Shown here: positions 4,639-60,926 of the stretch, piece by piece
Layout of the letters: every line of letters starts with the position of its first letter
Position numbering within the stretch: the stretch's first letter is position 1
NCBI GenBank assembly: GCA_034723395.1
Contig: JAYEOW010000029.1
Coordinates: forward strand, 4,737 to 68,736
Direction: 5' to 3'
DNA length: 64,000 bases
From: Candidatus Margulisiibacteriota bacterium
GTDB taxonomy: Bacteria > Margulisbacteria > WOR-1 > O2-12-FULL-45-9
The notes under the pieces: model-generated
The model's input: the letters and a program-made list of their open reading frames with translations, nothing else
Database searches by the model: none
Told to the model about the DNA's origin: nothing
Program-made: the position numbers and the translations under genes

Positions 4639-4656
4639 TAAATTCACCCCCTTTTT

Positions 4657-4695
4657 TAATTATTAATTGATTAATTTGATTAATTGTTAATTGTC
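4657..4695. repeat. AT-rich iterated TAATTG/CAATTAACAAT element between fabG stop and acpP RBS
   Basis: Sequence taattattaattgattaatttgattaattgttaattgtc. On the minus strand it reads acaattaacaattaa..., shared with 39077-39118. Confidence 0.5.
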
Positions 4696-5427
4696 TCATG
4701 TGTTCATCAACATCCCGCCGTTAACATTTATTACCTGGCCGGTAATATAGTCAGCAGCGCTGCTAGCTAGAAACAGGGCGGAAGCGGCAATGTCTTCCGG
4801 CAGTCCGAGCTTTCCAAGCGGAATATGTGCCAGCATATTTTGCTTAACATCTTCAGGAATCTTATCAGTCATGGCGGTTTTAATAAAGCCGGGGGCAATC
4901 GCGTTTACGGTTATTCCGCGGGCGGCAAACTCCCGGGCCAATGTCTTGGTTAGGCCGATAACTCCCGCTTTTGATGCGGAATAATTCGCCTGTCCCACGT
5001 TTCCCATTTCCCCAACGATCGAAGCAATGTTAATGATCTTTCCCGAACGCTGCCTCATCATCAATATGGCGGCTGCTTTAGAAACATTAAAAACGCCAGT
5101 CAGGTTAACATTGATCACCGTGTCCCAATCCTCTTTTTTCATTCTGATGAACAAAGTATCTTTAGTGATGCCGGCGTTATTAATCAGAATGTCGATCTTG
5201 CCCAGCTTCGCCTTGGCCTCTTTTATTCCGGCATCTACGTCTGCCGGGTCCACGACATTCATCTTTAGCGGAAGAGCATTCAATTCATTTGCTGTCCGGG
5301 TTGCCAACTCTAAATTAATGTCGGTTATAATTACTTTTGCTCCTGCCCTTGCAAAGGCGACGGCGATCTCCTTACCTATTCCCTGCGCGGCGCCAGTGAT
5401 CAGGACAACACTATCTTTTAGATGCAT
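4696..5427 (-). CDS. fabG: 3-oxoacyl-ACP reductase (SDR)
   Basis: 243 aa. TGAAQGIGKEIA Rossmann motif and YSASKAG catalytic motif. Confidence 0.9.
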   Translation of the reverse strand: MHLKDSVVLITGAAQGIGKEIAVAFARAGAKVIITDINLELATRTANELNALPLKMNVVDPADVDAGIKEAKAKLGKIDILINNAGITKDTLFIRMKKEDWDTVINVNLTGVFNVSKAAAILMMRQRSGKIINIASIVGEMGNVGQANYSASKAGVIGLTKTLAREFAARGITVNAIAPGFIKTAMTDKIPEDVKQNMLAHIPLGKLGLPEDIAASALFLASSAADYITGQVINVNGGMLMNT

Positions 5428-12134: not shown

Positions 12135-13013
12135 TCAATGTGTCGCCCGGGGATGGGCCGAATCGTAGACCTCCTTAAGCCGCTCTTTAGTAATATGCGT
12201 GTAAACCTGAGTGGTCGAAAGTGAAACGTGGCCGAGAAGCTCTTGAACTACCCGAAGGTCGGCTCCGCCTGACAAAAGATGGGTTGCAAATGAATGTCGA
12301 AGAGTATGTGGAGTGACTTTCTTAGAGATCCCCGCTTTTTTTGTGTAGTAAACGATCATTCTCTCGACGGAACGGGTGGTCAATCTCCCTCCACGGTGGT
12401 TTATAAAAAGGGCTGGGTTTTTATTGCCGGAAAGAAGCCCTGTTCTTCCTTCTTTAATATAATTCGATAGGGCTTTTTTTGCGTGAGAGCCGAAAAGGAC
12501 GATCCGCTCTTTTGACCCTTTCCCTAAAACCTTGATTTCCCCCTCATCAAAGTCGATATCATTGAGGTTTATGCGAATGATCTCGGTAACGCGCAGGCCG
12601 GTCCCGTAGATTAATTCTAAAATTGTTTTATCGCGCAAGCCTTTTGCCTTTCTTAGGTCGGGAGCCGTAAACAGCGAATTAATCTCTTCCGGATAGAGGA
12701 AGTTTGGAAGTTTTTTTGGGAGCTTAGGAGTTAACAGATTTTCAAACGGGTTCTGTTTGATGATTTTTTCCCGGGAGAGGAAGCGAAAGAAAGATCTGGC
12801 GGATGAAAGTTTCCGCGCAATTGATCGGCGGGAAAACTTTCTTTTCTCGAGCGCCGAGAGATATTCTCTGGCAGATGCCCGGTTAACCTTTTTGATGTCG
12901 ACAAGTTTAGCCAATGATCTTAAGTCGCGCTGATAGTTGCTTAATGTGTGAGGGGAGTAGTTTCGTTCGGTTTTTAAGTATTTAATGAATTGATCGATCA
13001 GATCAGAGGCCAT
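12135..13013 (-). CDS. Tyrosine recombinase, XerC/XerD type
   Basis: 292 aa. Catalytic-region motifs HTLRHSFATHLL and GHVSLSTTQVYTH. XerC versus XerD cannot be distinguished from this. Confidence 0.85.
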   Translation of the reverse strand: MASDLIDQFIKYLKTERNYSPHTLSNYQRDLRSLAKLVDIKKVNRASAREYLSALEKRKFSRRSIARKLSSARSFFRFLSREKIIKQNPFENLLTPKLPKKLPNFLYPEEINSLFTAPDLRKAKGLRDKTILELIYGTGLRVTEIIRINLNDIDFDEGEIKVLGKGSKERIVLFGSHAKKALSNYIKEGRTGLLSGNKNPALFINHRGGRLTTRSVERMIVYYTKKAGISKKVTPHTLRHSFATHLLSGGADLRVVQELLGHVSLSTTQVYTHITKERLKEVYDSAHPRATH

Positions 13014-13534: not shown

Positions 13535-14725
13535 ATGGAGAAACGACATCTTTTTACATCAGAATCGGTTACCGAAGGGCATCCCGATAAAGTTTGCGAC
13601 CAGGTTTCGGACGCCATCTTAGACGCGATCGTCGAGAAGGACCCCCCCGGACGCGTTGCGGTTGAAACGTTAGTTACCAATGGATTAGCAATTGTGGCAG
13701 GGGAAGTTACTACCGGTTGTTATGTTGATATCCCCAAAATAGTTAGAAAAACGATCAAAGATATCGGATATACCCGCGCTAAGTACGGGTTCGATTATGA
13801 AACCTGCGGAGTGATGGTGGCAATTAAGGAACAGTCCAAAGATATTGCCCGCGGGGTGGATAAGGCGCTGGAGATCAGGGGTGGAGAAGTAATAAAAGAA
13901 GACCTGGAGGGACTAGGCGCTGGAGACCAGGGACTAATGTTTGGTTATGCCTGTGATGAGACAGAAGAGTTGATGCCGCTTCCGATCGTTCTGTCGCATA
14001 AGCTTTCACAGAAATTAGCCGATGTACGAAAGACCGGCGAATTAGATTACTTAAGGCCGGACGGAAAATCCCAGGTAACAATTGAATACGATAAAGACAA
14101 ACCGATCAGGGTCCACACTGCGCTAATCGCCGCACAGCATTCACCCGAAGTAAAAATGGACAGGATAAGGGAAGATATTTTGGAAAGAGTGATCCTGCCG
14201 ATCCTTCCTGAAGAAATGGTCGATGATAAGATCAAGCATTATGTAAATCCTACCGGCCGGTTTGTGATCGGCGGACCGCAGGGGGATAGCGGGGTGACCG
14301 GCAGAAAAATTATTGTCGATACTTATGGCGGATACTCCCGTCACGGCGGCGGAGCTTTTTCCGGCAAGGACCCGACAAAAGTTGACCGTTCCGGGACTTA
14401 TGCGGCGCGCTGGGTCGCTAAAAATATTGTTGCATCCGGATTAGCTAAACGCTGTGAAGTTCAGCTTGCTTATGCGATCGGGATTGCCCGGCCGCTATCG
14501 ATCATGGTCGATACTTTTGGGTCGGGAAAGATCGCGGACGGCAAGATCGCAAAATTGGTAGATGAAATATTTGATCTCCGTCCGGGAATGATCATCAAAG
14601 AGCTTGACCTTAGGCGTCCGCTCTATTTGCAGGTTGCTGCTTATGGGCATTTTGGCAGGCTCGACCTGGACCTTCCTTGGGAGAATACCGATAAGGCTAA
14701 AGAGCTAAAGAAAAAAGCTAGTTAA
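13535..14725 (+). CDS. metK: S-adenosylmethionine synthetase
   Basis: N-terminus [22 protein letters not shown] and motif [16 protein letters not shown]. Confidence 0.95.
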
Positions 14726-17399
14726 GCAGGTATCTTTGTCCGTAGATCGCGCGGCCACCGCTGGCGTAGTCTTCCCAAAAAACATAAAAGCTGCCGCCCG
14801 ATTCGCTGGCGATAATTTTGGGGTTTCTGCCGCCATTAACAGTATTTATTTTTATCCCATTTTCATCCCAGATCGACTGTCCGACACTGTCTAGTTTTTG
14901 AACATAAAGCTCGTAATTTTTTCCGCTTCGATAGTCTTCCCAGATAATTAATACGTTTTCATCGTTTAATTTAACCACCTGCGGAGAATATTGTGTATGC
15001 GGGATAAGGGCGACCGGTATTCCTTTCGGGTTCCAGGATAACTTCCCGGACAGATCGATCGCGCCGGCAAAAATATCCCAATTCCCATATCGATAATCTT
15101 CCCAGACCAACACATTCGAATTTCCAAATTTAGCGTTCTGTTGGGTTCGGCCCGACTGGTTTATCGGGATCCCATCCTTCATCCAGACCGGCTGGCCCCC
15201 TTTATTTACCCTTTGCGCGTAAATATCGTAGCTCCCACCGCCGCGATCGGTCCAGGCGATCATGGCTCCACCATTGCCGTCCGATATTATTTTCGGCCGC
15301 CGCTGTACGTCCGGAGCGCCGCAGACGATTGCTCCATCTTCCTGCCAGAGAGGGGCCCCTTTACTGTTTACCCTTTGCGCGTAAATGTCCGGATTCCGGT
15401 CGCCGCGCCGATAATCGGTCCAGGCGAGAATTGCTCCGCCGGACCCGTCAGAGATCATATCTGCGTCAATTTGGTTTCCATTGGCTGAAATGATGGCTTT
15501 TCCCTGGCTGCCCCATAAAAGTTTTCCTTTGGGACTTACTCTTTGAGCGTAGACATCCTGCAGACTTAAAACATTCCGGTTGTCCTGCCAGGCGATGATC
15601 GTTCCGCCGGCATCGTCGGAGACCATTAGCGGATTTGTCTGGTGGACCGGAACCTTGGATAACGGCAGGCTGCTCGCCCAAACTTTTTTCCCGCTTCGGT
15701 TGATCCTTTGGGCGCGGATCATCGGGAACTGTTTGATGCGGTAGTCTTCCCAGGAGATAATCGCTCCCCCTTTCCCGTCCGACACTATCCGGGGGGACAA
15801 TTGATTGGCCGCGACTTTGGCGATCGCGGTCCCGTGCTGTCCCCAGGCTAGCTTCCCGGCGGGAGTGATCTTTTGTGCATAAATATTAAAAAATCCTGAC
15901 CGGGCGTCTTCGAAAACCAGAATGATCTCGCCGTATTCGGTAAAGATGAGGCTCAGGTTTTGCTGGATGACCGATCCAATGGCCGACCCGATTATGTTCC
16001 CGTTTTTACCCCAGAGCAGTTCCCCGGCGGGAGTAAGTTTTTGGGCGTGAATGTCATAGTTTCCACTCCTTTTATCTTCCCAGGCGATAATTACGTTTCC
16101 CGATGGGGAGGCGACCAGGGAGGGGGATTCCTGCGATTGGGTCGTGGAGGCCAGGGGGATGCCGTTGGTGTGCCAGATGGGGATTCCCGAACTGTTGATT
16201 TTTTGGGCGAAGAGATCGGACCTTCCTTTTCTTGAATCTTCCCAAATCACAACCCAGTCTTGGCTGTTTAGTTTTACGATTTCTGGATTTTTTTGGGTGC
16301 CGTTCGCTATGGTGACCGGCCGGCCGTTTTCCTGCCAAGCGGTCTTTCCGTCGTGGTAGATCCGCTGGGCATAGATATCGCTTTTTTCCGCGCGGTGGTC
16401 GGTCCAGATAACGATCGCTCCCCCGGCGCCATCCTTTGACAATCTCGGGTTCTCCTGCGCGAAGGGGAGTTTGCAGGCGGCTATACCATCTTTATTCCAG
16501 AGCAATTTTCCTTTGAGATCGATCTTTTGAAGGTAGATATCAAAGTTCCCGGAGCGGGCGTCATTCCAGGCGAGAATAGCCCCATTTTCTGCCGACATAA
16601 TAACCGGACGCTCTTGGTTCCCGGGAGAAAGGGAGACCGCTTTTCCCTCTTTTTCCCAAAGCAGGTTGCCCAAGGCGTCGATCCTCTGCGCGTAAATATT
16701 ATTGTCCGAAGCGCTGGTCCTTCCGTCGGTCCAGACGATGATCGCGCCGCCGGACCCATCACCGGTTATCTTGGGATACCACTGAGTTCCGCTGCTGATC
16801 GATACCGCGACCCCGTCTTTTTGCCACAACGGGTTTCCCTTGCTATCAATCCTCTGCGCGAAGATGTCTTCACCTTTCCTTCCGCGGTAATCGTGCCAAG
16901 TAATGATCGCACCGCCGTGCCCGTCGGAGGTGATCTCCGGAGCGAACTGTCCAGCCGCCGCCTGGCAGATCGGGATCCCGTCCCTTCCCCAAAGCGGGGA
17001 GCCGTTGCTGCTTATTTTCTGGGCAAAGATGTCGGAATTCCCATTGCGGTAGTCTTGCCACACGACGACCACCCCGTTTAACCCATCGGTAATCAATTGC
17101 GGGAAGTTTTGATTGCCCGCAGATTTTCCGGCGGCAATTCCGTGTTTAGCCCAAAGCGGAACACCAGCCCGGTCGATCTTCTGAAGGTAAACGTTATAGT
17201 AACCGGACCGTCCATCTTCCCAGGCGAGAAAGTAGCCGTTACTCCCGTTACTGATTATTTTTGGGTTTTGCTGCGGGCTATTCCCCGGGGTATCGTTAAC
17301 GATGAGCCCATAAGTTGACCAGGCCGCTTTGGGGGTTTCCTGTGCGTAGGTTGGCGGGACCAAAAGGAGGCAGCATATTAAAATTGATAAAAATCTCAT
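14718..17399 (-). CDS. Secreted tandem-repeat protein (about 15 x ~58 aa), predicted beta-propeller-like
   Basis: Signal peptide [19 protein letters not shown]. Repeat consensus ...W..[DN]G..V......Q..P.I.SDG.GGAII.W.D.R.G..DI[YF]AQ[RK]I.. Confidence 0.7.
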
Positions 17400-28478: not shown

Positions 28479-29820
28479 GTACGTTTGCCAATCGTGCGGC
28501 CAGGATTACCCCAAGTGGGAAGGGCAGTGTAGGAGTTGTGGGGAGTGGAATAGCCTTGAAGAGGAAGTCCGAAATCCTAAATCCGAAGGCCAAAACAAAT
28601 TCGAAATTCCAAATATCAAACCTCAAAAGCCGGTTGCGATTACGGAAGTTGAAATTGAAGTAGAGGAGAGAGATAAGACCGGGATTGCGGAGGTTGATCG
28701 GGTTTTGGGTGGGGGAGTAGTAGCAGGCTCAGTTGTTCTAGTTTCTGGAGAGCCAGGGATTGGAAAATCGACAATGATGCTGCAGGCAGCGGAGGCTTTA
28801 AGTAAAATCGAGAAGGTTCTATATGTAAGTGGGGAAGAATCGGCTAAGCAGATCAAACTTCGCGCACAAAGACTGGGAACCCTTTCGAAAAATCTAATCC
28901 TTCTGCCCGAAACCAATATCTTTGCTATTCAAAAAGCGATCGATGAAGTAAAGCCGAAGTTTTTGGTAATCGATTCGATCCAAACCATGTATCGGGAGGA
29001 TATTACATCGGCTCCGGGATCGGTTTCGCAGGTTAGAGAGAGCGCAAACTATCTGGTTAAGATCGCAAAATCGACCGGGATCCCTGTTTTTATCGTCGGA
29101 CATGTGACCAAAGATGGAAATATTGCCGGTCCAAGAGTTTTGGAACATGTGGTCGATACTGTTCTTTACTTTGAGGGGGAGAGACATAAACAGTATCGCA
29201 TTCTCCGGGTAACCAAGAATCGTTTCGGCTCGACCAATGAAGTCGGAATATTTGAAATGCGGGATAAGGGATTGATCGAAGTTGCCAATCCTTCGCAGGT
29301 TTTCCTTTCCGAGCGGCCTAAGGAGTCTTCTGGTTCAGTTGTGACTGCAGCTATTGAGGGGACGCGTCCGCTACTGGTCGAAATTCAAGCATTAGTCCAT
29401 CCGAGCAAGATGGCCTATCCGATCAGAAAGTCTACCGGGGTGGATTATAACCGTGTTTCGATCATTCTTGCTGTTCTAGAAAAGCAGCTGGGGTTAAAAC
29501 TATCAAATTCTGATGTTTATGTTAATGCGGCAGGTGGAGTTAGAATTTCAGAACCAGCGATCGACCTGCCGATTGCGATTGCAGTTGCTTCTTGTTATAA
29601 AAATAAACCATTTAACTTCGAAACTGCGGTAGTTGGGGAGATTGGTCTTGCTGGAGAGATCCGTTCGGTTAATCAAATAGAACAACGAGTAAAAGAAGCA
29701 GAGAAATTAGGATTTAAAAAGATCATTATTCCCAAAGCAAACTTGAAAGAGGTTAAAAAATCAAAAATAGCTGTGATCAACTTTTCTTCTATCCGTGAAG
29801 CTTTTACAGGTATTTCCTAG
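28459..29820 (+). CDS. radA: DNA repair protein RadA/Sms
   Basis: N-terminal zinc ribbon CQSCGQDYPKWEGQCRSCGEW, RecA-like Walker A GEPGIGKST, Lon-like C-terminus. Confidence 0.9.
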   Translation: MSPQLAKYVCQSCGQDYPKWEGQCRSCGEWNSLEEEVRNPKSEGQNKFEIPNIKPQKPVAITEVEIEVEERDKTGIAEVDRVLGGGVVAGSVVLVSGEPGIGKSTMMLQAAEALSKIEKVLYVSGEESAKQIKLRAQRLGTLSKNLILLPETNIFAIQKAIDEVKPKFLVIDSIQTMYREDITSAPGSVSQVRESANYLVKIAKSTGIPVFIVGHVTKDGNIAGPRVLEHVVDTVLYFEGERHKQYRILRVTKNRFGSTNEVGIFEMRDKGLIEVANPSQVFLSERPKESSGSVVTAAIEGTRPLLVEIQALVHPSKMAYPIRKSTGVDYNRVSIILAVLEKQLGLKLSNSDVYVNAAGGVRISEPAIDLPIAIAVASCYKNKPFNFETAVVGEIGLAGEIRSVNQIEQRVKEAEKLGFKKIIIPKANLKEVKKSKIAVINFSSIREAFTGIS

Positions 29821-38152: not shown

Positions 38153-38360
38153 AGTTTATCCTCCTTTTGAGCCCCTCTATCAATTTATCAAAGTCTTCTT
38201 TGAAATCGGGCGCAACCATCAGTTTAATGGTCGCCTTCGGGCCGGGCTCAGGTTTTGGGGTGCGAATAGAGACCATCCCCTCAAAGGCCTCAAAATAGGG
38301 GCAGATTAGATAAATATCCTCCTTGTTTACTCTAAGAAATACATCGATCGAGTCCATCAT
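38127..38360 (-). CDS. Hypothetical small protein
   Basis: 77-aa ORF coupled between flanking genes. Confidence 0.35.
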   Translation of the reverse strand: MMDSIDVFLRVNKEDIYLICPYFEAFEGMVSIRTPKPEPGPKATIKLMVAPDFKEDFDKLIEGLKRRINFELASKNI

Positions 38361-39160
38361 AGTTTTTCGATGTAGAAGATCAAAACCGCTGGAACATCTT
38401 CATATAAGATATCGTTGACCTCCTTTAATTTTTCATTACGGTCGCCTTTTAAGGCGGGATTGATATTTTCAAGTTGGCCCAAAAGTTTATCTACCCGTGG
38501 GTTGTCATATCTGGAAAAGTTCGCATTGCCGTCCGACTTAAAGAGCGGTTCGATAAGGGTATAACTGTCATAGTTTGCGGCCGCCTCTTCGGTAAAAAGC
38601 TGTTTGATATTTGCTTTATAACCGAGCAGATATAAATCGTGTTTGCCCGAAGAAAGCCCATCAATCCATTTATCTTCATCAGAATAGGGGATCTCTACCA
38701 GTTTTACCTTCATTCCGATATTGCGCAGGTCCTTTTGGATCTGATTGGCAATAGCGACGGTCATTAGTCCGTCGGTATGGAGGAGGGTTAGCGTTTTTAA
38801 GCGTTTGTCATTCATCGGATAATTGGAGCCTTTCATTAAAAGTTTGGCGTAAGAGACATCCATTTCGCGCGGGGCAAGGTCGGGATCATAGCCGATCATC
38901 TTAGGCGGGATATAGCTTCCCGGGACTACCTCTTCGCTGATGATTTCGGTAAGAATATATTTTTTATTGATCGTTTGATCGACCGCTTCCCGGACACGGA
39001 GATCTTTAAGCACGGGATTTTTCTGGTTGAATGCCATGAACCAGAGGCCATCGTACTCTTTTGCTAGAGCGAAAGAACAATTAACAATTAACAATGACAC
39101 AATTAACAATGAATGAAATATTATCTTATTTAGACGCATATTTTTTTCTCCCTTGTTCAA
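38357..39160 (-). CDS. Truncated family-5 solute-binding-protein-like ORF (C-terminal half only); possible gene remnant
   Basis: LRVREAVDQTINKKYILTEII... matches the middle and C-terminal part of SBP_bac_5. The N-terminal 'signal peptide' is encoded by an AT-rich repeat element and overlaps the upstream gene. Confidence 0.4.
   Translation of the reverse strand: MNKGEKNMRLNKIIFHSLLIVSLLIVNCSFALAKEYDGLWFMAFNQKNPVLKDLRVREAVDQTINKKYILTEIISEEVVPGSYIPPKMIGYDPDLAPREMDVSYAKLLMKGSNYPMNDKRLKTLTLLHTDGLMTVAIANQIQKDLRNIGMKVKLVEIPYSDEDKWIDGLSSGKHDLYLLGYKANIKQLFTEEAAANYDSYTLIEPLFKSDGNANFSRYDNPRVDKLLGQLENINPALKGDRNEKLKEVNDILYEDVPAVLIFYIEKL
39077..39118. repeat. AT-rich CAATTAACAAT iterated element
   Basis: acaattaacaattaacaatgacacaattaacaatgaatga. 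Its first 15 nt are identical to the minus-strand reading of 4657-4695. Confidence 0.5.
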
Positions 39161-39677
39161 AAAGATCTTTCCCCTTGGAATCGATCGCCACGATCGCCGG
39201 AAAGTCGACTACGTCCAGCGCTAAAATTGCTTCTGACCCGAGATCAGGATAAGCGATCACGGTCGACTTCTTAATATGGCGCGACATTAAAGCGGCAGTC
39301 CCTCCCGGAACGACCATGTAGGCCGCTTTGTATTTTTTCATCGCGGTAATAACCTCTTTTCCGCGGCGCCCTTTGCCGATCGTTATCTTTACGCCCTGCT
39401 TTAGGAGCGCGGGAGTAAAAGGATCCATTCTGGTCGACGTCGTGGGGCCGATCGACCCGATAATTTTTCCCTTTGGGGTTGGGGTGGGCGACGCGTAGTA
39501 AAGGATCGCCCCTTCGGTTTTAAATGGGGGTTTGTTTTGAAATATCCGATGCGCCGCGTCGCGGGCAGTATAGATTATTCCAGAGATTAAAACTTTATCG
39601 CCAGCTTTTAGGCTTTTGACATCTTTATCGGTTAGCGGTGCTTTTAATTTTATTAGTTTTGATTTAGATTTCGGCAT
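39126..39677 (-). CDS. Class I (Fe-S) fumarate hydratase beta subunit
   Basis: 183 aa; Fe-S hydro-lyase tartrate/fumarate beta-type sequence, paired with the alpha subunit. Confidence 0.8.
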   Translation of the reverse strand: MPKSKSKLIKLKAPLTDKDVKSLKAGDKVLISGIIYTARDAAHRIFQNKPPFKTEGAILYYASPTPTPKGKIIGSIGPTTSTRMDPFTPALLKQGVKITIGKGRRGKEVITAMKKYKAAYMVVPGGTAALMSRHIKKSTVIAYPDLGSEAILALDVVDFPAIVAIDSKGKDLFEQGRKKYASK

Positions 39678-40512
39678 GTTTTACCCTATGCGCGTGACAT
39701 TCGATATTTATCGCTACCGGCAAACTTGAAATGTGGCACGGCCGCTTTTCAATGTTAACCGCTAATGCGGTGATTTTTCCGCCCATCCCCATCGGCCCGA
39801 TCCCGGTCTTATTGGTTTTATCAAGCAGCTCTTTTTCCCAATCGGCCATATTCTTTTCACTATTATGCATTCCAATTTCCCTAAAGAGCGCTTTTTTTGC
39901 GATTATCGGTGCGTAATCAAAACTTCCGCCAATACCGACACCGACGATCATTGGCGGGCAGGCGTTTGGCCCCGCGTTTTTGACGGTGTCCAGAATGAAT
40001 TCGGAGATTTCCCCTTTTCGGCTGTTTGGATTGAACATTTTAACTGCACTGCAGTTTTCTGCTCCGCCCCCTTTAGCCATCAAACTGAGTTTTATGTTTT
40101 CTCCGGGGACGATCTTAGTGTGGATGATAGCAGGCGTATTATCTCCGCTATTTTTTCGCCTTAAAGGATCCTTTGCTACCGATTTTCTTAGTTGAGCGTA
40201 TCCGCGGCTGACCCCTTCATTGATTGCCTCTTCGAGGACGCCATTTATGATTGCAACATCTTGTCCGACTTCAAGGAAGATTATTGCGAGTCCGGTATCC
40301 TGGCAAATGGGGAGTTTTTCTCTCCAGGCAGTTTTGGAATTGTTTATTAGCTGCCTGATGATTTCTCTTCCGGTGGGGGAGGTCTCTTTGGCCAGCGCTT
40401 TGTTCAATGCTCCGGTAACGTCTTCTGGTAAGGAAGTGGTCGCTTCAACGCAGAGTTTTTTTACCGTATCGGTGATCTTTTTTGCTACGACTTCTCTCAT
40501 ATCAATGACCAA
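39664..40512 (-). CDS. Class I (Fe-S) fumarate hydratase alpha subunit
   Basis: 282 aa; Fe-S hydro-lyase alpha-type with conserved Cys. Probable start at ATG 40500. Confidence 0.8.
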   Translation of the reverse strand: MVIDMREVVAKKITDTVKKLCVEATTSLPEDVTGALNKALAKETSPTGREIIRQLINNSKTAWREKLPICQDTGLAIIFLEVGQDVAIINGVLEEAINEGVSRGYAQLRKSVAKDPLRRKNSGDNTPAIIHTKIVPGENIKLSLMAKGGGAENCSAVKMFNPNSRKGEISEFILDTVKNAGPNACPPMIVGVGIGGSFDYAPIIAKKALFREIGMHNSEKNMADWEKELLDKTNKTGIGPMGMGGKITALAVNIEKRPCHISSLPVAINIECHAHRVKHAEI

Positions 40513-40538
40513 TGCCTAATGACGAATGACTAATTATG
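40503..40538. repeat. AATGAC-type intergenic repeat between mdh stop and fumarase start
   Basis: caatgaccaatgcctaatgacgaatgactaattatg, nearly identical to 47449-47481. Confidence 0.55.
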
Positions 40539-40539
40539 G

Positions 40540-41463
40540 TCATGTTATTTTATTATTATTTTCCCGGATAACTTCAGCTGACTTATGGAGGGCGGCTTTC
40601 TCTTTTTCGGTTAGTTCTATTTCAATTACCTCTTTTACCCCGTTTCTTCCAAGTTTTGCCGGGAGACCGATATAAAGACCCTTTAATCCGTATTCACCAT
40701 CCGTGTAGACCGAAGAGGGGATAACCTCTTCTTTATCTCGCAGGATAGATTCTATCATATGGGCGGCGGCAGCTGAAGGGGCATAATAGGCGGAGCCGGT
40801 TTTTAAGTGGGCAACTATTTCAGCTCCCCCCTTGCGGGTCCTTTCCACGATTTGGTCGATATTCTTTTGAGGGAGGAGTTTTTCGATCGATTTGCCAGAA
40901 ACGGTGGTTTGGCTGGGAACCGGGACCATGAGGTCGCCGTGAGTGCCCAAAACCATCGCTTTTACTTCGGTTACCGGGACATTCAGCTCCATCGCGATAA
41001 AAGTTGCCATCCTTGCCAGATCGAGCAGGGGAGCCATTCCTAATACTTTCTTAGGATCGAAACCCAAGGTTTTCCAGGCGACATAGGTCATTGTATCTAA
41101 AGGATTGGTGACCAGCAGAACGATCGAATTAGGGGCAAATTCTTTTATCTTTTCGGATACCGAAGTAATGATCGCAGTGTTCTTTGCTAAAAGATCATCC
41201 CTGCTCATCCCCGGTTTGCGGGCGAGTCCGGCGGTTACGACTACGATCTCTGAATCTTTGATCAGAGAAAAATCATTGGTGCCGGTTATTTTCGAGTCAT
41301 AGCCGACAACCGGTCCGGCCTGCATCATATCGAGTGCTTTTCCTTGAGGGATTCCTTCGATAATATCGACTAAGACGATATCGCCCAGCTTTTTTTCGGC
41401 TAGTCGGCGGGCGACTTCGGCTCCCACATTACCAGCGCCAATCACACTAATTTTAGACGTCAT
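40540..41463 (-). CDS. mdh: Malate dehydrogenase (LDH-like MDH family)
   Basis: GAGNVG NAD motif; Arg at the substrate-specificity position (GLARKPGMSRDDL); adjacent to fumarase. Confidence 0.8.
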   Translation of the reverse strand: MTSKISVIGAGNVGAEVARRLAEKKLGDIVLVDIIEGIPQGKALDMMQAGPVVGYDSKITGTNDFSLIKDSEIVVVTAGLARKPGMSRDDLLAKNTAIITSVSEKIKEFAPNSIVLLVTNPLDTMTYVAWKTLGFDPKKVLGMAPLLDLARMATFIAMELNVPVTEVKAMVLGTHGDLMVPVPSQTTVSGKSIEKLLPQKNIDQIVERTRKGGAEIVAHLKTGSAYYAPSAAAAHMIESILRDKEEVIPSSVYTDGEYGLKGLYIGLPAKLGRNGVKEVIEIELTEKEKAALHKSAEVIRENNNKIT

Positions 41464-43299: not shown

Positions 43300-44461
43300 T
43301 GTACTTTATCCCCGCCTTTTTCATGCGGGAGAGAGCCTCTTTGAGCCTTTCTTCCGTATCAACCAGAGAGATTCGCACATATCCTTCCCCCAGCTCACCA
43401 AACCCTATCCCTGGAGATACTACCACCCCGGTTTCATGGATCAAGTGGTTTGTAAAAGAGCTGGCATTAAAACCCGACGGGACCGGGATCCAAAGGTACA
43501 TAGCGGCCATCGGCTTTTTAATGTTCCAGCCGAGGCTGTTTAATCCATCAACCATGATATCTCTTCTTTTCTGGTAAGTGGCCCGCATATTGTCTAAATA
43601 ACTTTTTTTAACCTTTAACGCGGAGATCGAAGCTTTTACTACTGCGCAAAAGGGACCATAATCTAGATTAGTTTTCATTGAACGGAGAGATTCGATCAGT
43701 TTCGCGTTGCCGATAGCAAATCCCATCCTCCAGCCGGCCATCCCGAATGTTTTAGACAGGGTATGAAATTCGATGCAAACATCTTTTGCGTCCGGGATCG
43801 AAAGGCAGGAGATCGGTTTTTTCCCTTCAAAATAGAGTTCGGCATAAGCAAAATCGTGTACTAAGATAAGGTCGTACTTTTTAGCAAAGGCGACCGCTTT
43901 TTCAAAAAATGACCTGGGGGCAACCGCCGCGGTCGGATTAGTCGGATAAGAGAGAAAAAGGATCTTTGCCCGCTTGGCAATGGAAGCATCAATGATGTCC
44001 AGGTCAGGGATGAACCCATTATTTTCAACGGTTGGCAGGATAAATGGTTCTGCTCCAGCAAGGATTGGCCCTCTGAAGTGAGCGGGATAGGCGGGGGAGG
44101 GGGTTAAAACCGTATCTCCCGGGTTTAAAAAGGCAAAACAAAAATGGACGATCCCCTCTTTGCTTCCTAAAAGTTCGATCACTTCATTCTTCTTAATGTC
44201 AATGTTGTACTGTTTTTTACACCAGGCAATAACCGCAGACTTGAATTCTGGATCGCCTTCAAAAGATGAGTAGCGATGGCTCTGCGGATCTTTTACCGCT
44301 TTTACTAAAGCTTCGACCACTTCTTTGGGAGGGGGAACGTTAGGGGAGCCGATGCTAAGATCTATCAGGTCTTTCCCGTTGGCCCGCTCCTTGGCTTTTT
44401 GTTTATCCAGCTGGGCAAATAGATAAATCGGTAATTTTTGTAATCTGTCTGATTCTTTCAT
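43292..44461 (-). CDS. PLP-dependent aminotransferase, class I/II
   Basis: 389 aa; SKTFGMAGWRMGFAIGN with the PLP-binding lysine context. Confidence 0.8.
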   Translation of the reverse strand: MKESDRLQKLPIYLFAQLDKQKAKERANGKDLIDLSIGSPNVPPPKEVVEALVKAVKDPQSHRYSSFEGDPEFKSAVIAWCKKQYNIDIKKNEVIELLGSKEGIVHFCFAFLNPGDTVLTPSPAYPAHFRGPILAGAEPFILPTVENNGFIPDLDIIDASIAKRAKILFLSYPTNPTAAVAPRSFFEKAVAFAKKYDLILVHDFAYAELYFEGKKPISCLSIPDAKDVCIEFHTLSKTFGMAGWRMGFAIGNAKLIESLRSMKTNLDYGPFCAVVKASISALKVKKSYLDNMRATYQKRRDIMVDGLNSLGWNIKKPMAAMYLWIPVPSGFNASSFTNHLIHETGVVVSPGIGFGELGEGYVRISLVDTEERLKEALSRMKKAGIKYNV

Positions 44462-45414
44462 TTTATTAGATCCTTAGCGTGATAAGAGCTTCTTACAAAC
44501 GGACCAGCAAAAACCTTTAATCCAAATTTTTCTCCAGCCGCTTTGTACTCTTCAAATTCACTGGGTTCTACGTATCTTACTACCTTTTGGTGTGATTTTG
44601 AAGGGGGAAGATACTGCCCGATGGTTACGATATCGCAGGCAATGTTTTTCAGGTCGTTTAAAACTGAAAAAACCTCTTCTTTTTTCTCTCCCAATCCTAC
44701 CATAATCCCGCTCTTAGTGTAAATCTTTTCCTTCAGACGTTTTGTCATTTTCAAGACAGATAAGGAGCGTTTATAGCCGGCTTCCGGCCGTATTTGGGAA
44801 TAGAGCCTGGGAACCGTTTCCAGATTATGGTTCAAGACAAAAGGATTGGAGTTAAGAGCGGTCGCTAACGATGTTTCATTCCCTTTAAAGTCGGGGATTA
44901 ATACCTCTACTTTGATATTTGTTGTGTGAGCCGTGATATGTGAGTTGTGATATGTGAGTTGCCTGACAACTTTTGCAAATTGGGCTGCGCCGCCATCTGG
45001 AAGATCGTCTCTTGTTACCGAAGTAATAACGACATATTGTAAACCTAATTTTGTTGCGGTCCGAGCGATTCTTTCCGGTTCTTTCGGATCAAGGGGGATG
45101 GGTGTTCCTTTTCTTACTCCGCAGAAACGGCAGCTGCGGGTACAACGGTCACCCAGGATCATAAAGGTCAAAGTGTTATTTTTAAAACATTCGCCGATAT
45201 TCGGGCATTTAGCCAATTCGCAGACGGTATGGATGTTATCGTCGTTAATGATTGCGCGGATTCGGCGGATATGCTTTTGCTTCGGCGTTTTTTTTATAAG
45301 GAAGTCAGGCAAGCTCACGGAGCATCTTTTCCAGTCTTTCGTAATTGGCCGCGTAGACCATGGCGGTGTCTTTGGTAACCCGTTTCTTTTTAACCAGATC
45401 GCGCAGCGAAACAT
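44458..45414 (-). CDS. lipA: Lipoyl synthase
   Basis: CELAKCPNIGECF and radical-SAM CTRSCRFCGV motifs. The 5' end overlaps pilT by ~110 nt, so the true start is probably an internal GTG. Confidence 0.85.
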   Translation of the reverse strand: MFRCAIWLKRNGLPKTPPWSTRPITKDWKRCSVSLPDFLIKKTPKQKHIRRIRAIINDDNIHTVCELAKCPNIGECFKNNTLTFMILGDRCTRSCRFCGVRKGTPIPLDPKEPERIARTATKLGLQYVVITSVTRDDLPDGGAAQFAKVVRQLTYHNSHITAHTTNIKVEVLIPDFKGNETSLATALNSNPFVLNHNLETVPRLYSQIRPEAGYKRSLSVLKMTKRLKEKIYTKSGIMVGLGEKKEEVFSVLNDLKNIACDIVTIGQYLPPSKSHQKVVRYVEPSEFEEYKAAGEKFGLKVFAGPFVRSSYHAKDLIK

Positions 45415-47186: not shown

Positions 47187-47456
47187 ATGAAAAGATTTGG
47201 CTTTATATTATTTATTCTAATCATCATCTACTTTATTTTTCTCATCCGTCAGGATATAATTGGTAACCTGGAGCTAAAGCAGCAGGCCAAGAATATTGCG
47301 GTAGAACTTAAACGAGAGAAGATCCGGGCTAAAAATCTGCAAGACAAATTAAAAGCTCTCAACCGCAATAGTTATATCGAAAGCCTCGCGCGTACACGTT
47401 TAGGAATGATCAAAAAGGGGGAGACCCCTTATAAGGTGATAGAAAAAAATGACTAA
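47187..47456 (+). CDS. Septum formation initiator family protein (FtsB/DivIC-like)
   Basis: 89 aa; N-terminal TM followed by a coiled coil. Confidence 0.55.
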   Translation: MKRFGFILFILIIIYFIFLIRQDIIGNLELKQQAKNIAVELKREKIRAKNLQDKLKALNRNSYIESLARTRLGMIKKGETPYKVIEKND

Positions 47457-47545
47457 TGCCGAATGACTTAATGACTAATGGATGTAAAATTATTATAATA
47501 ATAAGCTCATTCATTCGTCATTAATTAATTAGTCATTAGTAATTA
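47449..47545. repeat. Imperfect palindromic AATGAC/GTCATT element between ftsB-like and S1 genes
   Basis: Left arm aatgactaatgccgaatgacttaatgactaatgg and right arm ctcattcattcgtcattaattaattagtcattagtaatt are approximate reverse complements. Confidence 0.55.
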
Positions 47546-47567
47546 TCCAGTAGGGGGTGAAGTAGAA

Positions 47568-47972
47568 TTGCCCATTGATATTGGGTCCGAGATTGAAGGT
47601 AAAGTGACCGGGATAGCGAATTTTGGCGCGTTTATAGAATTGCCGGAGAGGAATGCCGGACTGGTCCATATTTCGCAAGTTGCCGATAATTATGTGACTG
47701 ATATTAGCAAACATATAAATGTTGGAGATATGGTAAAAGTTAAGGTCTTGGGAATTAACAAGACTGGTAAATATGATCTTTCGATCAAGCAGGTCGGTAA
47801 ACCTGCCTGGCAGCAGAAAAGACGAAGGATCGAAGCGCCCAAGGGGAAGCCGGTTCCGGGTACATTTGAGGATAAGATTACCGCTTTTCTTAAGCAAAGC
47901 GATGAAAAACTGCAGGATTGGAAAAAGAATTTAGAGCAGAAGCAGGGTGGACGAAAGAAGAAATTCACCTAG
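47568..47972 (+). CDS. S1 RNA-binding domain protein (YabR/GSP13-like)
   Basis: TTG start preceded by the RBS AGGGGGTGA. S1-domain motifs EGKVTGIANFGAFIEL...GLVHISQVA. Confidence 0.7.
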   Translation: MPIDIGSEIEGKVTGIANFGAFIELPERNAGLVHISQVADNYVTDISKHINVGDMVKVKVLGINKTGKYDLSIKQVGKPAWQQKRRRIEAPKGKPVPGTFEDKITAFLKQSDEKLQDWKKNLEQKQGGRKKKFT

Positions 47973-47980
47973 GTCTATAT

Positions 47981-48066
47981 GCCGGGGTGGCGGAATTGGC
48001 AGACGCTGCGGACTTAAAATCCGTTTGGACTTAACTCCAGTGCCGGTTCAAATCCGGCCCTCGGCA
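47981..48066 (+). tRNA. tRNA-Leu (anticodon UAA), long variable arm
   Basis: GCCGGGGTGGCGGAATTGGCAGACGC...CTTAAAA anticodon loop...GGTTCAAATCC T-loop...CCTCGGCA; folds as a cloverleaf with a 7-bp acceptor stem. Confidence 0.85.
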
Positions 48067-48112
48067 TTTTCCTTTGTCTCTCGCTTCGCTCGAGGCTTCG
48101 GAGAATAAAGAG

Positions 48113-58682: not shown

Positions 58683-60926
58683 GTGGGTTCACCGGGATTA
58701 CCCAACTCCAAAATCAAGATACTGCCTCGGCAATGTTCAGTAGATAAGGATGATAATTTTGACTTTATAGGTCTTGCACAAAATCCTGCGTGGCTTAGGA
58801 TAGCGCTTGATAGTTCCAGAATAGAACTGAATACGGTTTATACTGAAAGCGAGCTCTATCAAATCGCGGTTGAGGAATTCGGTGAAGTCAGCCGCGAGGC
58901 GGTGGCGAGCCTTTTTATTCAGCAATATCCCTCCTTTGTCCAGCTCATGCGCCCTCGTTGCCGTGAGCACGAAGAACGCCTTTTTGTTCGCAGAGGGCGC
59001 CAACCATACTCCAATATACGGTTCGTGAACCCTCGTTGCCATGAGCACGAAGAACGTCCTGTTGTTCGCAGAGGGGGCCAGCCAAAAACTGTGCCGGTGT
59101 TTTTGCTGGAAGGCCCCGAATTTTTTTATTTCGGAAGTGAACCCGAAAGTGAACTATATACCCTGGCTTTAAAAAAAGAGATAAAAGAGATCGTAAAAGA
59201 AGGGCGGGCAGTTCCGGTTTATTTTCAAAAAAATCGAGCGGCCTATTTTACTCCTGACGCTCTGGCGCAATGGCTAGAGGCAGGAGACATTTTAGAGGTG
59301 GAAGAAAACAACGCCCTGAAATACGTTTTTACGCAAAAGTCCGGAGTTTTCTTTGCTGGCGGCAAAGCAAAAATACGCCGCAAATCTATGCCCGCGGCTA
59401 GTGAGGCCCTCCTTAGTTTTTTAAGAAACAAGCAGCTTTCCAGGCGGGAAAGACTTTCTTTCCCGCTGCTTGCGGAAGCCATCCAGGCTTTAGCTTCTTC
59501 TCCCCAGGGTACTGATCCATATTTTGAGGCGGCGCGCATCGCAGCCGAACATGGCGCGTCAGAAACAAGCCTAGCTGCGCTTCTTCTGCAGAAGATTTTA
59601 CCAGAATATACCAGCCCCAGCTATGATTGGTTATTAAATAAAAGGGGTCTACCGACTACGTTTATACAGCATCTCAAAGCTGTCCACGGAGAAACCGGAT
59701 TTTCGTGGAGGAGATGGCCCCTTGAAGTGCGCCTACTGGGAGGTAAAGTTGCCGACATTCGACATGTCTCTGGTATGCATGTGGGCTTGATGCGCATCCA
59801 GAATGCCGGAGACATACATACTTATTTGCAGCTTTTTCTTAATGTTCTTGGTTTTGATTCTAGTTATAAGCAAGAGACCTACCTCGAATACTTTGCCACT
59901 GTTTTGGGAAAACTCCGGCATACGCCGGTGCGAGCCCTTAAAAAAGAAGAGGAAAGAAATCTAAGGGTTGTAGTAGCTCCCCTGGCGGAAAGACGTGGTT
60001 TTTCTGGTTTAGCGGCGATGATCCGTAATGAAATATTCCGTATTTCTTACAACCGCGCCTACAATCATTTTCGAAGAAAAATTGAAAAAGCGACCGGCTT
60101 AACTTATTCAGAGATGGAGCTACACCTGCAAGATACAGTAAACCTAATTCGCGAAGTGATTGCTGCGGCAGGCATTGCGCCTGAAGACTATGAGATCTTC
60201 TTTCGGGTTAAACTCCCTTATTCAGCATGGGAGAAGATGCAAGCTAATAAGATCAGTGATCCTGGTCAAGTTCATGATCTCTTAGGGATGAGTATCGTGG
60301 CTGAAAATGACCGTTTGGTCCGCCGCATTGAGAAATTGATCCCTCAGGTGCTTCCAAACCTCTCACTTGAAAATTTTAAGGACCCTCACGAACTTTTGCC
60401 GCACATGCGTGAAAATCGTCTGCCAACATATAAGGATCAGATTGCTAAACCCGCGGACAGCGGCTTCTCAGCGATAACCATGATACGTTTGACTATGCTA
60501 AAGTTGCCAGCGGAAGTTCAAGTCACAAGTCGAGAGCGTGACAGGATAAATCGCGAGGGTGTTGCCGCGCACTGGAAGCATAAGATACGCAGGGAGATCA
60601 AACATTTTTACGGGATTGAAATTGCTGAACTTGCGGATCTCGTGGAACACAAAGATAAGTTTAGCGTGGTCCTTTATGGGGATTGGAAAGGGAATATTAG
60701 GAAAACCCTTAACCAGGGCCTGGATTACAAGGTGTTTGATAATTTGCAAGAAAAGGATGTGGCGGAGTTTCTGGATTACAATCCCCATGATAAGCTATTT
60801 TATCTAGACCATTGGAAATTTAGGCGTTTGGGAAGAATCCGCCGTGTCTCCGCGCTTGAGCCTCTCCAGACTGAAGGGGACCATTCTATGACCTATCTCT
60901 TTTTAGTGCTCAGGGATAAAAAATAA
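58683..60926 (+). CDS. RelA/SpoT-homolog synthetase-domain protein with non-canonical architecture (large N-terminal extension, no recognisable HD, TGS or ACT domains)
   Basis: Residues ~495-650, RVKLPYSAWEKMQANK...DLLGMSIVAE...DQIAKPADSGFSAIT...AEVQVTSRER...GVAAHWKHK, align with the RelA synthetase core GRPKHIYSIWRKMQKK...DVRAVRIVAE...DYVANPKPNGYQSIHT...EIQIRT...GVAAHWKYK. The N-terminal boundary is uncertain. Confidence 0.6.
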   Translation: MGSPGLPNSKIKILPRQCSVDKDDNFDFIGLAQNPAWLRIALDSSRIELNTVYTESELYQIAVEEFGEVSREAVASLFIQQYPSFVQLMRPRCREHEERLFVRRGRQPYSNIRFVNPRCHEHEERPVVRRGGQPKTVPVFLLEGPEFFYFGSEPESELYTLALKKEIKEIVKEGRAVPVYFQKNRAAYFTPDALAQWLEAGDILEVEENNALKYVFTQKSGVFFAGGKAKIRRKSMPAASEALLSFLRNKQLSRRERLSFPLLAEAIQALASSPQGTDPYFEAARIAAEHGASETSLAALLLQKILPEYTSPSYDWLLNKRGLPTTFIQHLKAVHGETGFSWRRWPLEVRLLGGKVADIRHVSGMHVGLMRIQNAGDIHTYLQLFLNVLGFDSSYKQETYLEYFATVLGKLRHTPVRALKKEEERNLRVVVAPLAERRGFSGLAAMIRNEIFRISYNRAYNHFRRKIEKATGLTYSEMELHLQDTVNLIREVIAAAGIAPEDYEIFFRVKLPYSAWEKMQANKISDPGQVHDLLGMSIVAENDRLVRRIEKLIPQVLPNLSLENFKDPHELLPHMRENRLPTYKDQIAKPADSGFSAITMIRLTMLKLPAEVQVTSRERDRINREGVAAHWKHKIRREIKHFYGIEIAELADLVEHKDKFSVVLYGDWKGNIRKTLNQGLDYKVFDNLQEKDVAEFLDYNPHDKLFYLDHWKFRRLGRIRRVSALEPLQTEGDHSMTYLFLVLRDKK
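58949..59079 (+). repeat. Two ~53-nt direct repeats, 78 nt apart, each with terminal inverted arms (GCGCCCTC...GAGGGCGC)
   Basis: R1 58949-59001 and R2 59027-59079 are about 85% identical. They lie in frame within the 5' part of the RSH-domain ORF, encoding PRCREHEER...RRGRQP and PRCHEHEER...RRGGQP. Confidence 0.6.

Follow-up and report, generated by a model that had tools for sequence, protein, structure and literature searches.

Introduction

Heptanucleotide tandem repeats have long been used for fingerprinting cyanobacteria, and the short tandemly repeated repetitive (STRR) sequences described by Mazel and colleagues in 1990 reportedly have units that read CCCCAGT, TTGGTCA and CAACAGT. Here we analyse a repeat of the same unit length, AATGAC followed by one variable base (AATGACN), that occupies two operon junctions in a 64,000-nt stretch of DNA from Candidatus Margulisiibacteriota (contig JAYEOW010000029.1 of assembly GCA_034723395.1, positions 4,737 to 68,736; hereafter the window). 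We favour, with some reserve, the reading that both loci are STRR-like heptameric simple-sequence repeats (SSRs) which DNA-level processes have spread and homogenised and which are tolerated where constraint is weak.

Heptameric SSRs are over-represented in bacteria, and three tandem heptanucleotides have been cited for Calothrix PCC 7601 (PMC4692102). The intergenic GGGAATC arrays of Xanthomonas commonly hold four units, form inverted pairs and vary between close relatives, and their origin has been ascribed hypothetically to slippage and the footprint of the polymerase active site (Rehm et al. 2015, PMC4692102). In Nostoc sp. PCC 7120, eight copies of GAC(C/T)AAT overlap the recO start codon and similar arrays are found at at least 13 other genes, with a role that is a matter of speculation (10.1101/2022.06.06.494920). 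Direct repeats of TAACTGA are found in marine Beggiatoaceae, cyanobacteria and Bacteroidetes, where they lie upstream of genes that have no Shine-Dalgarno sequence (SD) (MacGregor 2015, PMC4679880). A literature search combining Margulisbacteria with heptanucleotide repeats gave no relevant report among the papers searched, and a search by the STRR unit sequences returned unrelated papers only.

Results

Heptad arrays at the mdh-fumA and ftsB-S1 junctions

Site 1, caatgaccaatgcctaatgacgaatgactaat at 40503-40534, occupies most of the 39-nt gap (40501-40539) between two minus-strand genes, mdh upstream (malate dehydrogenase; Pfam Ldh_1_N/C; 40540-41463, stop codon TGA at 40540-40542) and fumA downstream (class I fumarase, alpha part; Pfam Fumerase; 39664-40500, start codon ATG at 40500-40498), the latter with no SD visible 5' of its start. 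Its array (40504-40534, plus strand) has 4.4 units, AATGACC AATGCCT AATGACG AATGACT AAT, and reads as GTCATTN on the transcribed minus strand, with the final heptad 3 nt from the fumA start codon. Adjoining it at 40535-40543 (plus strand) is TATGGTCAT, which holds one inverted unit (ATGACCA on the coding strand) and in which the mdh stop TGA overlaps an ATG. ATGA flanks the 39-nt spacer on both ends (40543-40540 and 40500-40497).

Site 2, aatgactaatgccgaatgacttaatgactaat at 47448-47479, lies between two plus-strand genes, a member of the ftsB/DivIC family upstream (Pfam DivIC; 47187-47456) and an S1-domain protein gene downstream (47568-47972), which has a TTG start and retains its SD, GGGGGTGA. 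The left arm of this second locus (47448-47481, plus strand) reads AATGACT AATGCCG AATGACTT AATGACT AATGG; it is in the coding orientation, the ftsB/DivIC stop codon TAA (47454-47456) falls within it, and the next start codon is 87 nt away. A 26-nt AT-rich loop containing the palindrome TTATTATAATAA (47482-47507) separates it from the right arm (47508-47545, minus strand), whose reverse complement, AATTACT AATGACT AATTAATT AATGACG AATGAATG, makes it an inverted partner that pairs with the left arm. The two sites thus present AATGACN in opposite orientations relative to transcription. A tRNA-Leu gene (47980-48067) comes after the S1 gene.

Gene identities were taken from precomputed Pfam matches on the identical Logan contig. 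Since the window sequence is 100% identical in that independent assembly, the arrays are no artefact of one assembly pipeline. The host is a Candidatus Margulisiibacteriota metagenome-assembled genome (MAG), identified by exact protein matches (record MEA3493609.1 and its neighbours) on a contig of 150,827 bp, and the window encodes housekeeping operons. A preliminary description of this DNA had quoted the two repeat strings, which are present where it placed them; the genes that it named at both sites are right by Pfam (Ldh_1_N/C, Fumerase, DivIC and S1), both copies do lie within short intergenic gaps inside operons, and the second copy is palindromic and is predicted to fold into a long AT-rich hairpin in RNA. 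The inverted arm that it reported 25 nt 3' of site 2 also exists, at a spacing of 26 nt.

The heptad periodicity is well supported. Tandem Repeats Finder assigns period 7 and 4.4-4.9 copies to three arrays, at 40504-40534, 47448-47480 and 47511-47545, all of them imperfect (72-79% matches). The 13-mer AATGACNAATGMC, with at most one mismatch, occurs 7 times in the window against 0.54 expected, always at sites 1 and 2, and this count was reached in 0 of 100 shuffles. By itself, the heptamer TAATGAC shows no enrichment in the window (10 occurrences against 5.9 expected, with 13 of 100 shuffles reaching 10), and the full 32-mer has one match there at up to 3 mismatches. The hexamer cores of the two direct arrays are identical at 24 of 24 positions, including an AATGCC variant in unit 2, and the arrays differ only at 3 of the 4 variable bases that follow the cores (two substitutions and one extra base). 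By these three measures (period-7 arrays, 13-mer enrichment and core identity), the family of direct heptads put forward in the preliminary description is real. Elsewhere, GAC-GCC-GAC-GAC is an uncommon unit order (2 of 401 pattern matches in one set and 3 of 287 in another), and AATGCC makes up about 2.7% of units. Because identical cores and this rare order are shared, the two direct arrays probably derive from a common source.

An ungapped period scan misses such arrays because 8-nt units break the register: it returned one period-7 region at a threshold of 80% and five at 76%, and Tandem Repeats Finder was used instead. Exact 6-mer counts per lag are dominated by codon periodicity and were not used as evidence for the window; lag 7 is prominent in the relatives (149, against 47-82 at neighbouring lags that are not multiples of 3) and not in the window alone.

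Empty and filled sites in relatives

About 20 syntenic loci, referred to here by L numbers, were assembled from a metagenome scan with the neighbouring aminotransferase and from look-ups of Mdh homologues. In L202, L203 and L204/L205, whose Mdh is 88, 90 and 84% identical to that of the window, mdh and fumA overlap by 16 nt; the DivIC-S1 gap is 0-2 nt in L202 and L204/L205, L203 covering the mdh-fumA junction only. L122 has a 9-nt ftsB-S1 gap. Across eleven relatives (twelve loci) the ftsB-S1 spacing runs from a 7-nt overlap to 36 nt. The mdh-fumA spacing of the relatives lies between -16 and 32 nt, with two exceptions, L124 and L130. The mdh-fumA spacers of these two (L124 9007-9095 and L130 12524-12622) carry an unrelated insertion with two short hairpins, CCCCACATTTNAATGTGGGG and CCCCATAATAAATTATGGGG, which is possibly another small repeat family.

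Alignment to the relatives gives a clean insertion of about 47 nt at site 1 and, against L122, L202 and L204, one of 103 nt at site 2 (47445-47547, plus strand), placed between ...ATAGAA and CAG(TA)GGGGGTGA, the SD of the S1 gene. The ftsB frame of the relatives extends through this SD; in the window it is ended by a stop codon that the array supplies. Both AATGACN loci are lineage-specific insertions. An insertion length of 42 nt (6 x 7) at site 1 was considered and dropped, the spacer measuring 39 nt and the ATGA-to-ATGA offset 43 nt; a similar length of 105 nt at site 2 was dropped as well.

A distant relative, L141 (64% aminotransferase identity), has a palindromic AATGACN insertion at exactly the ftsB-S1 junction. 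It consists of AATGACT AATGACG AATTACT AATGACT AATGAAGG, a 32-nt loop unrelated to that of the window, and an inverted array. Since closer relatives are without it, this insertion would most simply have arisen in parallel. The homologous 21-kb region (window 30540-51463) contains five heptad arrays in the window against one each in L202 and L204, a difference that suggests a recent burst of heptad arrays specific to the window's lineage.

Distribution of the AATGACN unit

A one-genome-per-species scan for AATGACNAATGMCNAATGAC returned at least 120 loci, and group counts were made from the record titles of the matches listed. Among these, 71 of the 120 loci are cyanobacterial (Nostoc, Microcoleus, Anabaena, Calothrix, Fischerella and others), 17 belong to Verrucomicrobiota, 8 to Bacteroidota, 6 to Planctomycetota, 4 to Acidobacteriota and 1 to another Margulisiibacteriota MAG (L064), with 13 other or unclassified. 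The same 120 listed loci hold 183 AATGACN arrays of 3-32 units, with a mode of 4. An inverted array lies within 200 nt of an array in 26 combinations (23 loci) among the matches listed, an architecture also seen at site 2, with examples from Gemmataceae, Abditibacteriaceae, Acidobacteria, Verrucomicrobiae, Bacillota and Nostoc. The seventh base deviates from the array majority in 24-25% of units, and the core positions deviate from the AATGAC consensus in 5-18% each. In viral contigs (IMG/VR, L208-L327), AATGACNAATGMCNAATGAC was found at at least 120 loci, including giant-virus MAGs and very large uncultivated viral genomes (UViGs).

Predicted RNA structure and transcription signals

The RNA of the site-2 element is predicted to fold at -29.9 kcal/mol (z -4.35; 0 of 200 shuffles as stable) and that of the L141 element at -34.7 kcal/mol (z -5.0), and the site-1 RNA folds no better than its shuffles (z -0.63). 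The preliminary description had considered the palindromic copy as a termination site, a role that does not agree with what we found: the site-2 stem is AT-rich and is followed by UAUCCAGUAGGGGG with no U-tract, and a terminator scan found nothing within either element (40501-40543 or 47445-47547). With neither a GC-rich stem nor a U-tract, the site-2 element is not an intrinsic terminator.

Two sigma-70-like matches, each at 10 of 12 positions, lie inside the site-2 element: ATGACT-17-TATAAT on the plus strand (47471-47499) and ATGACG-18-TATAAT on the minus strand (47521-47492). The heptad unit itself resembles a -35 box and the site-2 loop has a palindromic TATAAT, so that promoter-like matches run in both directions; TATAAT was not found in the L141 loop. 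Against the gathering scores of Rfam 15, the window matched two tRNAs only; there was nothing at all at site 1, and at site 2 only hairpins of plant microRNA precursors, far below threshold.

Other heptad arrays and their turnover

The window holds seven period-7 arrays in 64 kb, four of them with units other than AATGACN, and three further heptad arrays lie in the adjoining 5.3 kb of the host genome. In the window and its relatives together (750 kb), period 7 accounts for 30 of the 49 arrays of at least three copies, the runner-up being period 9 (n = 8). The four other arrays of the window are spread over one spacer and three genes. An array of CAATTAA type (coding strand) fills the spacer between the fabG stop and the acpP SD (4656-4693, minus strand). 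A 7+8-nt repeat (TCATTGTTAATTGTG x 2) with GTCATTG/AATGA units (39076-39119, minus strand) lies in an SBP_bac_5 gene (38357-39139), where it covers codons 7-21, that is, the signal peptide (...FHSLLIVSLLIVNCSFALA...). A 14-nt (7+7) repeat (44925-44961, minus strand) lies in a loop of the lipA (lipoyl synthase) coding sequence (44458-45162), and heptads of GAAATCC type (28564-28627, plus strand) form the radA linker that follows the zinc ribbon. The fabG-acpP spacer and SBP signal-peptide arrays are 88% reverse-complementary to one another (4674-4699 against 39094-39119), so that one unit type occurs in both transcriptional orientations; AACAATT/TTAATTG is thus a second unit family found in both.

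Relatives differ from the window within these genes, with concerted changes in the radA and SBP arrays. Among relatives whose RadA is 91-93% identical, the radA linker of L207 (7051-7082) is GAAATCC x 4, that of the window is GAAGTCC GAAATCC TAAATCC GAAGGCC, and in L206 (5485-5528) AAATCCG has become AAATGAC in units 1 and 4 alike, at a distance of 21 nt from each other. These concerted three-base changes lead to the very AATGAC unit of sites 1 and 2 and are seen in the protein as EIRN..EIRN versus EMTN..QMTN. The 15-nt (7+8) repeat of the SBP gene is TCATTGTTAATTGTG x 2 in the window and TCATTCTTAATTCTG x 2 in L204, with the same G/C changes in both copies. The lipA loop of the window is exactly 21 nt (7 amino acids) longer than those of L122, L202 and L204, and the loops of L130, L140, L141, L142 and L143 are made of heptads with quite different units. 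Taken together, the radA, SBP and lipA patterns indicate DNA-level turnover and homogenisation in weakly constrained segments.

The units seen in this lipA surface loop across at least six related genomes are ACTCACA/TATCACA, CAACTCC, ACGTTCA, ACGAACC, TGTGAGC and ATCCGCA. GTCATTN heptads occur in the SBP signal peptide of L124, L130 and L141, and heptad or 7+8-nt repeats, often GTCATTN, are found in signal-peptide codons of L124, L130, L141, L143 and L204, and also at L064 6306-6338 and L328 6529-6561; heptad arrays may serve as raw material for signal peptides.

The window has two repeats of other kinds. An 893-aa open reading frame (ORF) without a Pfam match (14718-17399, minus strand) contains diverged internal repeats of about 165 nt (about 55 aa), which form direct-repeat families D1-D4. 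A tandem 78-nt duplication (58931-59084, 80% identical) lies within a 747-aa ORF (58683-60926) and encodes a repeated peptide, R(P/F)..PRC.EHEER..VRRG.QP; it looked tRNA-like, and was rejected as a tRNA, being inside a long ORF.

Discussion

The two loci share with heptameric SSRs their head-to-tail 7-nt units, their dispersed arrays in which period 7 is the commonest and their variation between close relatives. They resemble the STRR sequences of heterocystous cyanobacteria in consisting of short head-to-tail arrays of 7-nt units that are dispersed, mostly intergenic and of no known function, and the AATGACN arrays among the matches listed occur mainly in Nostoc, Microcoleus, Anabaena, Calothrix and Fischerella. 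The complement of one STRR unit, TTGGTCA, is TGACCAA, which equals unit 1 of site 1 (AATGACC-AAT). They differ in that the host is a member of Candidatus Margulisiibacteriota, that the arrays are short (about 4.5 units) and that the comparison draws on about 76 kb of its genome. The strict STRR label, which belongs to heterocystous cyanobacteria, does not fit this host; assignment to the general heptameric class is unaffected.

Of the other described systems, the GAC(C/T)AAT arrays of Nostoc come closest in unit, which is identical (a cyclic permutation of AATGACY) and has the same degenerate base; arrays there touch start codons, and that of site 1 ends 3 nt before one. In Nostoc (10.1101/2022.06.06.494920) AATGACY is on the coding strand over the ATG, whereas the coding strand at site 1 carries the complement, and at site 2 the array is found at a stop codon with an inverted copy as its partner. 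The TAACTGA repeats are also heptamers (2-6 units) that contain stop codons, lie between genes, often just 5' of SD-less starts, have a patchy phylogenetic distribution and undergo indels in 7-nt steps between strains (PMC4679880). Their unit is a different one, and in the genome described they show a strong orientation bias toward the start codon, with one indirect repeat among 170 sets, in contrast to the two orientations and the palindromic pair seen here. The GGGAATC and GGGGA(T/C)T SSRs of Xanthomonas and Nostoc (PMC4692102) are likewise intergenic, most often of four units, degenerate at some positions and in some cases arranged in inverted pairs that can fold into stem-loops; they are G-rich and capable of forming quadruplexes, whereas AATGACN is AT-rich and incapable of it. 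Repetitive extragenic palindromic (REP) sequences and their hairpin-forming doublets (REPINs) share with site 2 the position of an extragenic palindrome in an operon and a predicted intercistronic mRNA hairpin. They differ from our loci, which have no conserved palindromic core, arms made of tandem heptads, no REP-associated tyrosine transposase (RAYT) in the window and, at site 1, barely a palindrome: across site 1, site 2, L141 and the 26 pairs among the matches listed, the heptads alone are shared and the loops and flanks are unrelated.

If the arrays are SSRs, as we favour, they would have originated and spread at the DNA level by polymerase slippage or template switching together with ectopic conversion of one array by another; a strand switch, or the insertion of a preformed palindrome, would account for the inverted arm, and arrays would persist wherever constraint is weak. 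Properties of the unit bear on where it can settle. Every AATGACN unit contains TGA and ATG, and also TAA when N is T, and because 7 equals 1 modulo 3, three units are enough for each frame to have both a stop and a start. Insertion in the AATGACN orientation at a gene end therefore merely re-terminates the upstream ORF (ftsB here and in L141), and this orientation cannot sit inside a gene. The GTCATTN orientation is open unless N is A and encodes hydrophobic runs of the V-I-G-H-W-S-L type, fitting its occurrence in signal peptides. For the host, the insertions would uncouple the overlapping pairs mdh/fumA and ftsB/S1, and an imperfect hairpin of about 33 bp would appear in the mRNA at site 2; such consequences are likely side-effects and not a selected function.

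Several observations sit uneasily with repeats that are merely generated and tolerated. A kept hexamer with a floating seventh base is not predicted by neutral slippage and may point to a templated process or to selection acting on the hexamer. The strong taxonomic skew is unlike a generic property of polymerases, and the palindromic insertion that L141 has at the ftsB-S1 junction as well suggests that the place is a hot spot or that selection is at work. The arrays of this host were counted in about 76 kb of its genome. A more specific form of DNA-level origin, which we hold to be quite unlikely, would make the arrays the footprint of a dedicated system that writes or converts templated AATGAC plus one untemplated base and is common to cyanobacteria, Margulisbacteria, the Planctomycetota/Verrucomicrobiota group and some viruses. 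Gene junctions with a proto-unit (ATGA, TTGAC) would be the places where it inserts arrays, frequently in inverted pairs, and it would also overwrite units of other arrays, as in the radA of L206. It would amount to a minimal selfish repeat or to a telomerase-like, reverse-transcriptase-like or template-switching activity, and the empty and filled sites of Margulisbacteria would then show its insertion signature.

It is possible, if on balance unlikely, that the arrays are selected cis-acting RNA elements, with the site-2 hairpin serving as an intercistronic processing or stability element (for example an RNase III substrate) and the unstructured AU-rich array of site 1 as an SD-less fumA leader, or, in a variant, with ATGACT-17-TATAAT acting as an internal promoter. 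The stable predicted folds of site 2 and of the independent L141 element at the same junction, the intact SD of the S1 gene directly 3' of the hairpin, the promoter-like matches on both strands and an RNase III gene encoded in the window are consistent with this, as is the SD-less fumA with an array ending 3 nt before its start, which recalls the TAACTGA repeats of Beggiatoaceae (PMC4679880). Yet neither junction has an array in any of the closest relatives, from which it follows that the arrays are not needed for operon function; the site-1 RNA shows no unusual stability, site 2 has no U-tract or GC-rich stem, no Rfam family is matched, TATAAT is not kept in the L141 loop, and a hairpin is automatic for any inverted pair of tandem arrays. 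Iterated binding sites, raised in the preliminary description, would instead call for a protein that recognises the hexamer every 7 nt, for instance a single-stranded RNA or DNA binder of the Csp, S1 or HutP-like type, in a network shared with cyanobacteria. A conserved core with a degenerate seventh base and the recurrence of the unit across phyla speak for this, and the GTCATTA orientation in L141 reads UAG-N4-UAG-N4-UAG, the spacing bound by Bacillus HutP. Binding by a protein has been the subject of speculation for the arrays of Nostoc (10.1101/2022.06.06.494920), and binding by S1, Csp or CsrA for those of TAACTGA (PMC4679880). We nevertheless find binding sites very doubtful: there is no organism in which a protein is known to bind such arrays, both transcriptional orientations are found, relatives do not keep the arrays in place, a single lineage has many different unit sequences side by side, and arrays in coding regions are hard to square with a single regulator.

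The preliminary description had also suggested a REP-like element or a miniature inverted-repeat transposable element (MITE). That the arrays are MITE- or REPIN-like miniature mobile elements moved in trans, with heptad arrays as their terminal inverted repeats, seems to us highly improbable, even though presence/absence polymorphism with clean empty sites, the inverted arms at site 2 and in the 26 combinations (23 loci) among the matches listed, the ATGA on both sides of the site-1 spacer (a possible target duplication) and the resemblance of both window arrays to copies of one source point that way. There is no conserved non-repeat core, the loops differing between the window, L141 and all other pairs among the matches listed; the arms have no fixed length or number of units, site 1 offers a single inverted unit, and comparison of site 2 with the empty sites of L122, L202 and L204 reveals no convincing target duplication. 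The window has no transposase or RAYT, its sole recombinase being an XerC/D-type integrase (12135-13013), and no RAYT was found in the sampled flanks either; heptads also turn over in place within genes. Chance similarity of two AT-rich spacers, for which the unenriched bare TAATGAC might speak, can be set aside with near certainty: the 13-mer count, the three Tandem Repeats Finder arrays and the complete identity of the cores exclude it, and AATGACN arrays exist at more than 240 loci elsewhere. The preliminary description had tied this outcome to the absence of both further copies and conservation in related genomes; positional conservation is indeed absent among relatives, but the unit is abundant in other genomes.

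The feature is real, and it is a further example of the known heptamer-repeat puzzle and not a new type of element; it is most probably not a REP or a MITE, and it is neither a terminator nor a known RNA family. As regards mechanism, the two loci are test cases and do not alone settle whether such repeats act. What they add are clean pairs of empty and filled sites at operon junctions together with hot spots in coding regions, which make the question of heptamer origin somewhat more approachable. The AATGAC+N unit is not confined to cyanobacteria: Margulisiibacteriota, a candidate phylum without cultured members that is not classed among them, has it too. Heptad arrays also colonise weakly constrained coding segments (the lipA loop, the radA linker and signal peptides), where they change in concert. 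For annotation, they account for unusual spacers where operon genes would otherwise overlap, for displaced stop codons and for protein loops that vary.

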